Below are positions 26,413-27,775 of a DNA stretch of 64,000 bases, in pieces. The notes beneath the pieces were generated by a model, which saw only the letters and a list, made by a program, of their open reading frames with translations, was not told the DNA's origin and searched no databases. The stretch comes from Escherichia coli (GTDB lineage Bacteria > Pseudomonadota > Gammaproteobacteria > Enterobacterales > Enterobacteriaceae), in assembly GCF_009931435.1 (NCBI RefSeq), contig NZ_CP043414.1, one strand, 5' to 3'. The stretch's first letter is position 1. Every line of letters begins with the position of its first letter. Both the position numbers and the translations under genes were made by a program.

Positions 26413-26663
26413 ACTTCAATTTCCAGTTCAGGCGCATAAATATCATTTACTTTGCCAACCAGTTGAAGCGCTGCACCCGGACGTTTTAATACTTCTGCCA
26501 GTGCTTCTTTACTTTCCGTTGCCACAATTCGCGTCAGATAGTTATGTGCCGGGGCAACTTTATTATCCATCGCCATTTCATTAATAAATTTGTTGTAGGC
26601 AGTCTGATTTGGCTCAAAAACAATATCAACACCACAAACACACAGTTTAATTTGTTCCATCAC
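26403..26663 (-). CDS. Tail assembly chaperone (gpE-like)
   Basis: 86 aa immediately upstream of tape measure gene; frameshift signal at 3' end. Confidence 0.55.
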   Translation of the reverse strand: MMEQIKLCVCGVDIVFEPNQTAYNKFINEMAMDNKVAPAHNYLTRIVATESKEALAEVLKRPGAALQLVGKVNDIYAPELEIEVKN

Positions 26664-26946
26664 TCATACTCTCTCTTAAATTAATTTCGTCCACTAACTG
26701 ATTATGACGCGCAGCACACTGCCCATAAATTTCAGGATAAATTGTCAGTAATTCCGCTGCATCTTTTCCTGTCGTACCGTTCAGGCGCGGCAGCTGCGTT
26801 GTGCATTTAGTTTTCAGGTTTTCCTGATAACGCACGTTCGGTACCGGCTGCGGCGCTGTTGTACATGCTGACAAACTCATCAGACAGACAACGATTGGTA
26901 AAAACGGGCTTAAGTATTTCCGTGCGTATCTCTCGCGGTGCCACAT
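26647..26946 (-). CDS. Rz1-like outer-membrane spanin lipoprotein (o-spanin)
   Basis: Overlaps Rz-like gene in another frame; signal peptide with lipobox-like LSAC; Pro-rich mature part. Confidence 0.45.
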   Translation of the reverse strand: MWHRERYARKYLSPFLPIVVCLMSLSACTTAPQPVPNVRYQENLKTKCTTQLPRLNGTTGKDAAELLTIYPEIYGQCAARHNQLVDEINLRESMSDGTN

Positions 26947-27145
26947 TTTTTAACGCCTCCAGTTTATCTTCCAGCGCTCTGGCCGAATCACTGGCAATAC
27001 CCTGCATTGCTTTTCGCGATTCATTACCGGCCACCTGCGCCGCTGTATTGATTGCCAGCTCTAAGCTGTCACGCCGCCAGTCAGCAGTCAGCCAGCCCCA
27101 GACAAACGCCAGCGCCACCACAACCAGCCACTGCCCGCTGCTCAT
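26807..27145 (-). CDS. Rz-like inner-membrane spanin (i-spanin)
   Basis: 112 aa, N-terminal TM helix then coiled-coil-like region; directly downstream of endolysin. Confidence 0.5.
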   Translation of the reverse strand: MSSGQWLVVVALAFVWGWLTADWRRDSLELAINTAAQVAGNESRKAMQGIASDSARALEDKLEALKNVAPREIRTEILKPVFTNRCLSDEFVSMYNSAAAGTERALSGKPEN

Positions 27146-27486
27146 CAGCGCACCCCGTTATGTTCCAGACTGAAATGATTGCCATCCGGTCTGGATTTGA
27201 AGCGTCCGCCCCAGGCACCACCCAGTGATTCCCAGTATTCCCCCAGAGGCAGATAATCTTCTGTGCGGGTTTTGTACTGACCGTTCACGAACAGATTGAA
27301 ATCCACCGCCAACCGCTGGGTGTGCAGACTGTTAGAAATGCCGCTGCCTTTCTTCGCATTCAGCGCGGCCTGTTCTGGTGTACGGTAAGCCTCACCGAAC
27401 GTCAGTCTGTAGCCATGTTCTTCTGCCCAGTGGATCAGACTGGCCACCATGACTGTGAATAATTGCTGTTTTTCACTCAGGATCAT
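27145..27486 (-). CDS. Endolysin, peptidase M15-like L-alanyl-D-glutamate endopeptidase
   Basis: Track ORF 27145-27603; probable start MILSEKQQLF... at 27486; size and HxxxxxxD...H pattern consistent with M15 endolysins. Confidence 0.6.
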   Translation of the reverse strand: MILSEKQQLFTVMVASLIHWAEEHGYRLTFGEAYRTPEQAALNAKKGSGISNSLHTQRLAVDFNLFVNGQYKTRTEDYLPLGEYWESLGGAWGGRFKSRPDGNHFSLEHNGVR

Positions 27487-27775
27487 TTGTCTTGCTCCCG
27501 TTCTGCTTTCCCGCTGCACGTCTGCGCAGCCACACTTCCACCGCCTGATAACCGGCAATCCCCAGCGCCGCCCCCAGCCCTTGAATGGCCAGCGGGCTGG
27601 CATCCGGGATCTGAATCAGCACCGCCCCGGCCACCACTGAAACCAGACTGCCCAGGATCACGCGACCAGCAAACAGGCGCGGCGTGATGGGGTCATTACT
27701 GGTCAGCACATTGCCGATGGCAATCAGTGCGCCAATGATCAGCAGTGAATAAAGGCTCTTTTCATGCTCCTGCAT
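27473..27775 (-). CDS. Holin
   Basis: 100 aa with hydrophobic TM segments and charged C-terminus, overlapping endolysin start. Confidence 0.5.
   Translation of the reverse strand: MQEHEKSLYSLLIIGALIAIGNVLTSNDPITPRLFAGRVILGSLVSVVAGAVLIQIPDASPLAIQGLGAALGIAGYQAVEVWLRRRAAGKQNGSKTNDPE

Follow-up and report, generated by a model that had tools for sequence, protein, structure and literature searches.

The closest described relatives of the locus analysed here are Cronobacter phage ESSI-2 and the ESSI2_ev phages of the Peduoviridae (ev040, ev129, ev015 and ev239), in which the same four lysis genes, in the same order, likewise separate the tail tube gene from the gene for the tail assembly chaperone. 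The ESSI2_ev phages are temperate coliphages that were obtained as viable isolates (PMC6969025). In a published survey of spanins, the ESSI-2 orthologue of one of these genes is listed as an i-spanin (Kongari et al., 2018; PMC6139136), and the two ESSI-2 spanins are classed as an overlapped two-component pair ('ovl'), with an o-spanin of 99 aa and an overlap of 140 nt (Kongari et al., 2018, Table S4; PMC6139136). Both values are the same in the cassette described below. Our search of the literature returned no experiments on the present locus or on the lysis genes of its close relatives.

Here we analyse a window of 64,000 nucleotides from an Escherichia coli chromosome (contig NZ_CP043414.1), for which a reading of the letters alone had proposed a lysis cassette embedded in a tail module of rearranged order (hereafter the original prediction). 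We conclude with high confidence that positions 26647-27775 of the minus strand hold the intact lysis cassette of a temperate myovirus of the ESSI-2/HP1 type (Peduoviridae), which resides between mntR and mntS as a prophage of ~30 kb.

Results

The cassette is part of a complete ESSI-2-like prophage

We first consider the locus as a whole. The minus strand between 26647 and 27775 carries four tightly packed genes, encoding a holin, an endolysin, an i-spanin and an o-spanin (Table 1). The boundaries match open reading frames exactly, with the o-spanin stop codon at 26647 and the holin ATG at 27775. Across the cassette, DNA identity is 95.8% to ESSI2_ev040 and 74.5% to ESSI-2, and the differences are allelic only. 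Prophages that are 99.9% identical are present in complete E. coli genomes, 38 of 5426 of which carry the cassette DNA. Pfam and PADLOC scans of an AT-rich cargo ORF and of an ORF adjacent to the integrase gave no matches.

We considered if these genes could instead be a decayed, non-functional remnant within a cryptic prophage, as many E. coli prophages are defective and a search for attachment-site repeats found no exact repeat of more than 12 nt in common between the presumed prophage ends. However, all four ORFs are full length when compared with their phage homologues, the element has an integrase, a repressor, and replication, portal, terminase, capsid and complete tail genes, and the identity to ev040 is identity to phages recovered as infectious particles. 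We therefore regard decay as very unlikely, and treat the cassette as intact in what follows.

Table 1. Lysis genes and adjoining tail genes, with positions in the window and the evidence for each assignment.
Feature	Position	Strand	Evidence
Holin, 100 aa	27473-27775	-	PF04550, phrog_175, hydropathy
Endolysin, 113 aa, soluble M15 (LAS-type) zinc peptidase	27145-27486	-	Peptidase_M15_4, PHROG families, motifs
i-spanin, Rz-like, 112 aa	26807-27145	-	phrog_1152, N-terminal transmembrane helix
o-spanin, Rz1/LysC-like, 99-aa precursor	26647-26946	-	lipobox, PF23793, phrog_2425
Tail tube protein (HP1 Orf24 family), upstream flank	27785-28240	-	PF10772 E=8.3e-64; phrog_1182 E=2.7e-75
Tail assembly chaperone, downstream flank	26403-26663	-	PF10963 Phage_TAC_10 E=6.6e-37
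Probable -1 frameshift extension of chaperone (DUF6890), outside lysis cassette	26212-26412	-	PF21830 E=3.2e-24
Tail tape measure protein	24248-26215	-	PF10145 E=4.8e-22; phrog_28 E=1.5e-103

The lysis genes lie between conserved tail genes

The original prediction had placed the cassette between the tail tube gene and the genes for the tail chaperone and tape measure protein, and the family matches of all three neighbors bear this out (Table 1). Only 9 nt separate the tail tube stop codon from the holin gene, and on the other side the start of the chaperone gene, whose family also includes HP1 orf26 (PF10963), overlaps the 3' end of the o-spanin gene. A slippery heptamer, A_AAA_AAC, ends at the chaperone stop codon and is the probable entry point to the extension, whose -1 frame stays open from there as far as 26212. 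The genes resembling gpL, gpR and gpS are contiguous and lie upstream of the sheath gene with nothing between them.

Within 26647-27775, the minus strand showed no promoter-like or terminator-like site, and counts of such sites in the region did not rise above shuffled expectation. Because adjacent genes, tail neighbors included, overlap or abut, and no such site was seen between them, the cassette is most likely transcribed within the late tail operon.

The order tube, holin, endolysin, spanins, chaperone and tape measure is conserved in HP1-type Peduoviridae, and the slot between tube and chaperone is shared by HP1, K139, phiO18P, ESSI-2, ev040, ev239, vB_YenM_324 and SI7. This synteny bears on the suggestion that the module order is rearranged. 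The order does differ from that of P2, as was correctly pointed out, but it is what the HP1/ESSI-2 branch of P2-like phages normally shows and not a rearrangement specific to this element.

Their place in a tail operon, where they show neither a promoter nor a terminator of their own, could also be taken to mean that the small ORFs encode tail or virion components, with the M15 peptidase acting as a wall hydrolase at the infection stage and the membrane proteins as tail assembly factors. Phage wall hydrolases do occur in virions. Against this, Pfam and PHROG scans returned no homology to tail components, since none of the four ORFs matched a tail-annotated family and the named matches were all to lysis families (holin, endolysin, Rz-like spanin and LysC). 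Moreover, the peptidase is a stand-alone protein of 113 aa, and its gene overlaps the end of the holin gene on one side and the beginning of Rz on the other, in the classic order of lysis genes, and in HP1, K139 and phiO18P the slot holds unrelated holins and lysozymes, a pattern that fits a lysis slot better than a structural one. A structural role for these genes is accordingly most improbable, and the four ORFs are best read as lysis genes.

Holin and endolysin

The first gene of the cassette encodes a holin that matches Phage_holin_3_2 (PF04550) over model positions 1-86 of 86 (E=6.3e-39; 132.7 bits, cut-off 25) and the holin family phrog_175 (E=1.8e-39). It is annotated as 'holin' in ev040 and as 'phage holin family protein' in E. 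coli RefSeq records, while direct comparison with the HP1 holin detected no similarity. The hydropathy profile shows two strong transmembrane segments (residues ~8-25 and ~35-56) and a weaker third hydrophobic segment (~61-83), followed by a basic, charged C-terminal tail (RRRAAGKQNGSK...; RRRAAGKQNGSKTNDPE). Because the third segment is weak by hydropathy, the topology class of this holin is uncertain. Its predicted role is to make timed, lethal holes in the membrane.

The endolysin gene begins 14 nt before the end of the holin gene. Its product matches Peptidase_M15_4 (E=3.1e-10; 40.9 bits, cut-off 25) as well as four PHROG endolysin families (1768, 465, 2649 and 6523); the score against Peptidase_M15_3 was 15, under the cut-off of 23.2. 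The ev040 record likewise names its counterpart an endolysin. Two motifs, S53-x-H55-x4-A60-x-D62 and D101-G-N-H104, are invariant across six homologues. By analogy with the T5 endolysin EndoT5 and with VanY-type enzymes, rather than from a structure of the present protein, we take the corresponding patterns SxHxxxxAxD and DxxH to supply the zinc ligands and the catalytic Asp. The zinc-ligand pattern of His-x6-Asp with a C-terminal His in DxxH is present in full (H55, D62, D101 and H104). Residues 9-27 are nearer to those of ESSI-2 and ev239 than to those of ev040, even though ev040 has the highest DNA identity overall.

The start of the endolysin is the internal ATG at 27486 both in homologues and in RefSeq, giving a protein of 113 aa. 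The longest ORF in this frame (27145-27603; 152 aa) was rejected: the 39 residues that it would add lie over the holin frame, no homologue has them, and RefSeq leaves them out.

A sequence search against solved structures gave a marginal match to Ply500 (2VO9, E=0.42) along with chance matches to a nonribosomal peptide synthetase (NRPS) carrier domain. We also examined an AlphaFold model, which was built from a six-sequence alignment and is of low confidence (mean pLDDT 66). The top Foldseek matches to this model were all L-Ala-D-Glu peptidases, namely Ply500, ChiX, T5 and RB49 (2VO9: E=1e-3, TM 0.48). With a model of such low confidence, these fold matches are supportive only. Taken together, the data suggest that the endolysin is probably an L-alanyl-D-glutamate peptidase; because the model is of low confidence and direct similarity to solved peptidases is weak, we infer the cleaved bond rather than assign it.

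No signal sequence, signal-anchor-release (SAR) segment or membrane segment was found in the endolysin, for which the highest hydropathy over 15 residues was 1.08. A pinholin acting with a SAR endolysin, an alternative used by many phages of Gram-negative hosts and one that would suit a holin with only two strongly hydrophobic segments, is hardly credible here, given that the holin matches in full length a Pfam family named for three transmembrane segments and that the endolysin has no N-terminal hydrophobic segment and therefore no evident export route without large holes. The cassette thus reads as a large-hole holin with a cytoplasmic endolysin.

An overlapped spanin pair

The i-spanin gene follows directly, its ATG and the stop codon of the endolysin having one base in common (TGATG). 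The protein matches the 'Rz-like spanin' family phrog_1152 (E=2.9e-35), and its orthologues in ev040, ESSI-2, ev239, SI7 and vB_YenM_324 are annotated as Rz-like spanin or I-spanin; no similarity to P2 LysB was detectable by direct comparison. A single hydropathy peak at residues 1-22 corresponds to an N-terminal transmembrane helix, WLVVVALAFVWGWL, and the remainder is charged (13 K+R, 14 D+E), which is the layout of a type II inner-membrane protein with a periplasmic domain. The lone Cys is at position 86.

The o-spanin begins 199 nt past the Rz start (66 codons plus one nucleotide, hence the +1 frame), with a GGAGG ribosome-binding site 9 nt upstream of its ATG at 26946. It overlaps the last 140 nt of Rz and extends 160 nt past the Rz stop, an 'overlapped' architecture. 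The register column of Table S4 in Kongari et al. (2018) reads '2' for ESSI-2, which we have not reconciled with the +1 count here. The N-terminus is a signal peptide, MWHRERYARKYLSPFLPIVVCLMSLSA, with a basic n-region, a hydrophobic core, and the lipobox LSAC ending in Cys28, which was located by pattern search and fits [LVI][ASTVI][GAS]C. The residue at +2 is Thr and not the Asp that marks inner-membrane retention. The mature lipoprotein is predicted to have 71 residues. Family support came from Pfam LysC (PF23793; 27.7 bits, barely over the cut-off of 27), from phrog_456 'Rz-like spanin' (E=1e-6), and from phrog_2425 (E=7.4e-33), the best PHROG match, which is labelled 'unknown function'. 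The similarity to P2 LysC is a local match confined to the signal and lipobox region.

The Rz1 frame and its lipobox Cys are kept in six relatives (ev040, ESSI-2, ev239, SI7, vB_YenM_324 and HP1). In the part of the gene that encodes Rz1 only, substitutions at codon positions 1/2/3 numbered 9/8/25 against ESSI-2, 8/8/18 against ev239, and 17/14/33 against vB_YenM_324, a third-position excess in each case. Divergence from ESSI-2 was 14% over the doubly coding 140 nt versus 32% over the part that encodes Rz only. These patterns indicate that both spanin frames are under purifying selection. The pair is predicted to form a complex that crosses the periplasm and disrupts the outer membrane.

In RefSeq/PGAP and in the ev040 record the o-spanin begins at a GTG at 26835, giving 62 aa without a signal peptide, in conflict with the ATG at 26946. 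We rejected this GTG, as it loses the lipobox and has no ribosome-binding site, and likewise rejected Met23 (26880), from which the signal would be only 5 residues long. Several public records show the late o-spanin start (62 aa), label the product hypothetical, or omit the holin. As a point for annotation, the late internal GTG removes the lipoprotein signal from the o-spanin, and the product is recorded as 'hypothetical'.

The original prediction of a holin, an M15 endolysin and overlapping Rz/Rz1-like spanins was thus correct for all four genes, on both family matches and sequence features. Its holin and spanin calls had been made with moderate confidence, mainly from position and hydrophobicity. 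These calls stand, but they now rest on homology and sequence features as well, and our confidence in them is high; the transmembrane segments of the holin, the N-terminal helix of Rz and the LSAC lipobox of Rz1 were each found where membrane-segment and lipobox prediction had been proposed as checks.

Discussion

Our analysis is consistent with the canonical three-step lysis of Gram-negative hosts. In the first step, the holin would accumulate in the inner membrane and form large holes at a programmed time. The soluble 113-aa zinc peptidase, which carries no export signal, would then exit via these holes and cut the stem peptide of the peptidoglycan, probably at the L-Ala-D-Glu bond. Finally, a complex of the i-spanin, held in the inner membrane by its anchor, with the o-spanin, a lipoprotein of the outer membrane, would span the periplasm and, once the wall is gone, fuse the two membranes.

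The four-gene cassette is real but ordinary, being standard equipment for a phage and already known. Beyond annotation quality its significance is small: this is a holin-endolysin-spanin cassette of textbook form, from a phage lineage that is already known, and close relatives are already annotated as such. The small M15 peptidase would be a compact candidate if a minimal endolysin for Gram-negative cell walls were wanted. Its best structural matches, obtained with the low-confidence model, are the M15 L-Ala-D-Glu endolysins, a group comprising the catalytic domain of Ply500 from Listeria phage A500 (2VO9), the T5 endolysin (2MXZ), RB49, LysECD7 and LysB4. Sequence similarity to this group is very low, as the Ply500 match shows, and the present protein is shorter than every one of these and lacks a wall-binding domain.

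Among more distant relatives, HP1 (Haemophilus; hol-lys-orf25), K139 (Vibrio) and phiO18P (Aeromonas) have the identical slot, with sheath, tube (PF10772), lysis genes, chaperone (PF10963) and tape measure. In HP1, too, an ORF with a lipobox overlaps the 3' end of orf25, and the phiO18P o-spanin also belongs to the LysC family. In contrast, HP1 and K139 have an HP1-type holin (PF16080) and an endolysin of the Phage_lysozyme family (PF00959), phiO18P has a lambda S-type holin (PF05106), and the slots of K139 and phiO18P hold extra genes for a DksA-like zinc finger protein and a methyltransferase. Relatives therefore differ in the lysis gene families that occupy this slot.

One could propose that the tube-chaperone junction of HP1-type Peduoviridae is a fixed 'lysis slot' that swaps whole non-homologous lysis sets between orthologous tail genes: an HP1-type holin with a lysozyme, a lambda S-type holin, or, as here, a PF04550 holin with a minimal M15 peptidase. 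If this were true, placement in the tail operon might couple the dosage of lysis proteins to tail production. On the same reading, the 113-aa peptidase could rank with the smallest endolysins that stand alone. We consider all this unlikely; the variation seen gives no sign of more than ordinary phage mosaicism.

P2 has a similar functional set in its Y, K, lysA, lysB and lysC genes, comprising a holin, an endolysin and an overlapped i-/o-spanin pair, and the present o-spanin belongs to the Pfam LysC family, with a match to P2 LysC in the lipobox region. P2 K is a lysozyme-type enzyme, in contrast to the M15 peptidase here, P2 LysA has no counterpart in the present cassette, and the P2 genes lie in the order Y-K-lysA-lysB-lysC between L/X and R/S, whereas here the cassette follows the tube gene. 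The lambda endolysin, R, is a transglycosylase. Lambda Rz1 is fully embedded in Rz, whereas Rz1 here is overlapped, and the lambda cassette is located separately, at the beginning of the late operon and not among tail genes. Lambda S-R-Rz-Rz1 shares with the present cassette the gene order of holin, endolysin and spanins and the three-step mechanism predicted here (PMC6139136).

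Composition of the lysis cassette

Between about 17 kb and 33.8 kb of the window, every gene is on the minus strand; we identified them by Pfam and PHROG matches or, for three head genes, from the reference-strain annotation. The original prediction of a lysis cassette with holin, M15 endolysin and overlapping spanins, set between the tail tube and chaperone/tape measure genes, was confirmed by family matches and sequence features, and its bounds (26647-27775) are exact, running from the holin ATG to the final base of the o-spanin stop codon. Baseplate and fibre genes come after the tape measure gene in transcription order.

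Features in and around the cassette (window positions unless a record, L001 or L003, is named)
Feature	Coordinates	Strand	Basis
Major capsid, P2-type	31932-32969	minus	reference-strain annotation
Small terminase	31224-31928	minus	reference-strain annotation
Head completion, gpL-like	30568-31071	minus	reference-strain annotation
Tail terminator, gpR-like	30065-30571	minus	PF06891
gpS-like gene	29361-30068	minus	
Tail sheath	28237-29364	minus	DUF2586, phrog_907
Tail tube	27785-28240	minus	PF10772 'Phage_HP1_Orf24', E=8e-64
Holin	27473-27775	minus	PF04550, phrog_175
Endolysin	3' end 27145, start ATG 27486	minus	Peptidase_M15_4
i-spanin	26807-27145	minus	phrog_1152
o-spanin	26647-26946	minus	Pfam LysC, phrog_2425
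Late-started o-spanin, ev040 and RefSeq records	L001 6348-6536; L003 3348-3536		
Tail assembly chaperone	26403-26663	minus	PF10963, E=7e-37
DUF6890 frame	26212-26412	minus	DUF6890, E=3e-24
Tape measure protein	24248-26215	minus	
411-aa ORF	14825-16060	plus	
Integrase	43305-44360		
193-aa ORF	44381-44962	minus	

The 100-aa holin matched PF04550 across the entire model (E=6.3e-39) and the PHROG 'holin' family (E=1.8e-39), and by hydropathy it has three hydrophobic segments, two strong and the third weaker, ahead of a basic C-terminal tail. The endolysin gene overlaps it by 14 nt and encodes 113 aa; the longest ORF (152 aa) was rejected in favor of the start used by homologues and RefSeq. Its product matched Peptidase_M15_4 (40.9 bits against a cut-off of 25) and four PHROG endolysin families, and S53-x-H55-x4-A60-x-D62 and D101-G-N-H104, which we take to be the zinc ligands and catalytic Asp of LAS/M15 peptidases as in T5 EndoT5 and VanY-type enzymes, were invariant in six homologues. 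The best solved-structure matches of a low-confidence model (pLDDT 66) were the L-Ala-D-Glu peptidase endolysins Ply500, ChiX, T5, RB49, LysECD7, and LysB4, which supports, but does not prove, assignment to this type. A hydropathy scan found no hydrophobic segment in the endolysin, which is therefore cytoplasmic and dependent on a hole-forming holin; lacking a membrane segment, it is unlikely to be a SAR endolysin working with a pinholin.

The 2-kb cassette region shares 95.8% identity with Escherichia phage ESSI2_ev040 (ev040; Peduoviridae, Quadragintavirus) and 74.5% with Cronobacter phage ESSI-2. Although DNA identity peaks with ev040, endolysin protein identity is 85% to ev040, 92% to ESSI-2, and 90% to Escherichia phage ev239. 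Because its N-terminal helix (residues 9-27; window 27405-27462) differs from the ev040 version and is closer to ESSI-2 and ev239, the sequence suggests a small recombination patch within this gene.

The overlapping spanin pair

The i-spanin (Rz, 112 aa) begins with an ATG sharing one base with the endolysin stop (TGATG), has a single N-terminal transmembrane helix by hydropathy, and matched the 'Rz-like spanin' family (E=2.9e-35). The o-spanin (Rz1, 99 aa) starts 199 nt inside Rz in the +1 frame, with GGAGG 9 nt upstream of its ATG, and its basic and hydrophobic signal peptide closes with an LSAC lipobox followed by Thr (+2). It matched phrog_2425 (E=7e-33) and Pfam LysC (27.7 against a cut-off of 27). 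The transmembrane and lipobox predictions proposed as a check on the cassette were thus borne out in holin, Rz, and o-spanin, and none of the four genes matched a structural family, making it unlikely that they are tail components, the reading that would have overturned the original prediction.

The o-spanin frame and lipobox cysteine are kept in ev040, ESSI-2, ev239, SI7, Yersinia phage vB_YenM_324 and, as its own version, HP1. Beyond the Rz stop (160 nt), substitutions relative to related phages cluster at third codon positions (for example, 9/8/25 at positions 1/2/3 versus ESSI-2), and the doubly coding 140 nt diverged about half as much as the Rz-only part. The architecture is that of ESSI-2, classed in a 2018 spanin survey as an overlapped two-component spanin (i-spanin 110 aa, o-spanin 99 aa, 140-nt overlap; PMC6139136).

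In the E. coli RefSeq and ev040 records, the o-spanin is a 62-aa 'hypothetical' protein beginning at an internal GTG (window 26835), which strips the signal peptide and lipobox; the ESSI-2 annotation and the survey (PMC6139136) take the full 99-aa ORF, ribosome site included. The vB_YenM_324 'O-spanin' is also annotated at 62 aa, and an MSGC lipobox in the same open frame apparently lies upstream of that start.

Expression and proposed mechanism

Since the cassette genes overlap or abut each other and their tail neighbors, and no promoter-like or terminator-like site was found on their strand within the cassette (site counts were not above shuffled expectation), they are likely co-transcribed with the late tail operon. 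By analogy with established holin-endolysin-spanin lysis, holin triggering would make the inner membrane permeable, after which the soluble zinc peptidase would reach and degrade peptidoglycan, and the Rz/Rz1 complex, released from the wall meshwork, would fuse the inner and outer membranes.

The chaperone 3' end reads GTA AAA AAC TGA, which includes A_AAA_AAC, a classic -1 slippery heptamer. Past it, the -1 frame stays open for 64 codons, up to the tape measure start; RefSeq lists this DUF6890 frame as a separate CDS, and it is probably the chaperone's frameshift extension, comparable to P2 E/E' or lambda G/GT.

Prophage setting

The ~30 kb prophage (about 14400-45500) is flanked by mntR and mntS. 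The window contains no tRNA gene, and a comparison of the two prophage ends turned up no exact repeat of >12 nt. Prophages in complete E. coli chromosomes are 99.9% identical to the 2-kb region, which is present in 38 of 5426 E. coli genomes. Strain MFDS1016424 has the prophage between the same two genes, with integrase, repressor, replication, portal, terminase, capsid, and tail genes. Relatives' records name the cassette genes holin, endolysin, and Rz-like spanin or I-spanin/O-spanin, and the ESSI2_ev phages were isolated as infectious temperate coliphages (PMC6969025). With intact ORFs and viable close relatives, the cassette is unlikely to be a decayed remnant.

At the tail-side end, adjoining mntR and opposite in orientation to the tail genes, the 411-aa ORF sits in a markedly AT-rich stretch (GC 0.36 versus about 0.52); Pfam and PADLOC scans gave no hit, and the ORF may have a cargo or defence role. 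The 193-aa ORF just past the integrase at the other end, likewise without Pfam or PADLOC matches, is a possible second cargo gene. Between ybiU and ybiT (about 8790-9770), a near-identical reference strain's annotation has a frameshifted IS621 (IS110-family) transposase.

Position compared with P2 and HP1-type phages

As originally noted, the gene order differs from that of P2, where Y, K, lysA, lysB, and lysC lie between L/X and R/S, and E/E' and T come straight after the sheath and tube genes. In this prophage the gpL-, gpR-, and gpS-like genes adjoin one another, and the lysis genes come after the tube gene. The synteny comparison upheld this position but not a new rearrangement: the order sheath, tube, lysis genes, chaperone, tape measure is common to HP1 (Haemophilus), K139 (Vibrio), phiO18P (Aeromonas), ESSI-2, ev239, SI7, vB_YenM_324, and ev040, covering eight Peduoviridae genera. 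In vB_YenM_324 (OM095401), GenBank gives the name 'topoisomerase' to the gene between the gpS-like and tube genes (L002 6923-8062), almost certainly in error for tail sheath.

HP1 shares the tube and chaperone families with this window but not the lysis genes. HP1 and K139 carry an HP1-type holin (PF16080) and a Phage_lysozyme-family endolysin (PF00959), and phiO18P a lambda S-type holin (PF05106); direct comparison found no similarity of our holin to the HP1 holin, or of Rz to P2 LysB. Such differences amount to ordinary mosaicism among phages, at a position that is itself conserved. The cassette's position, unlike that in P2, is ordinary for its own lineage, the known HP1-type order.
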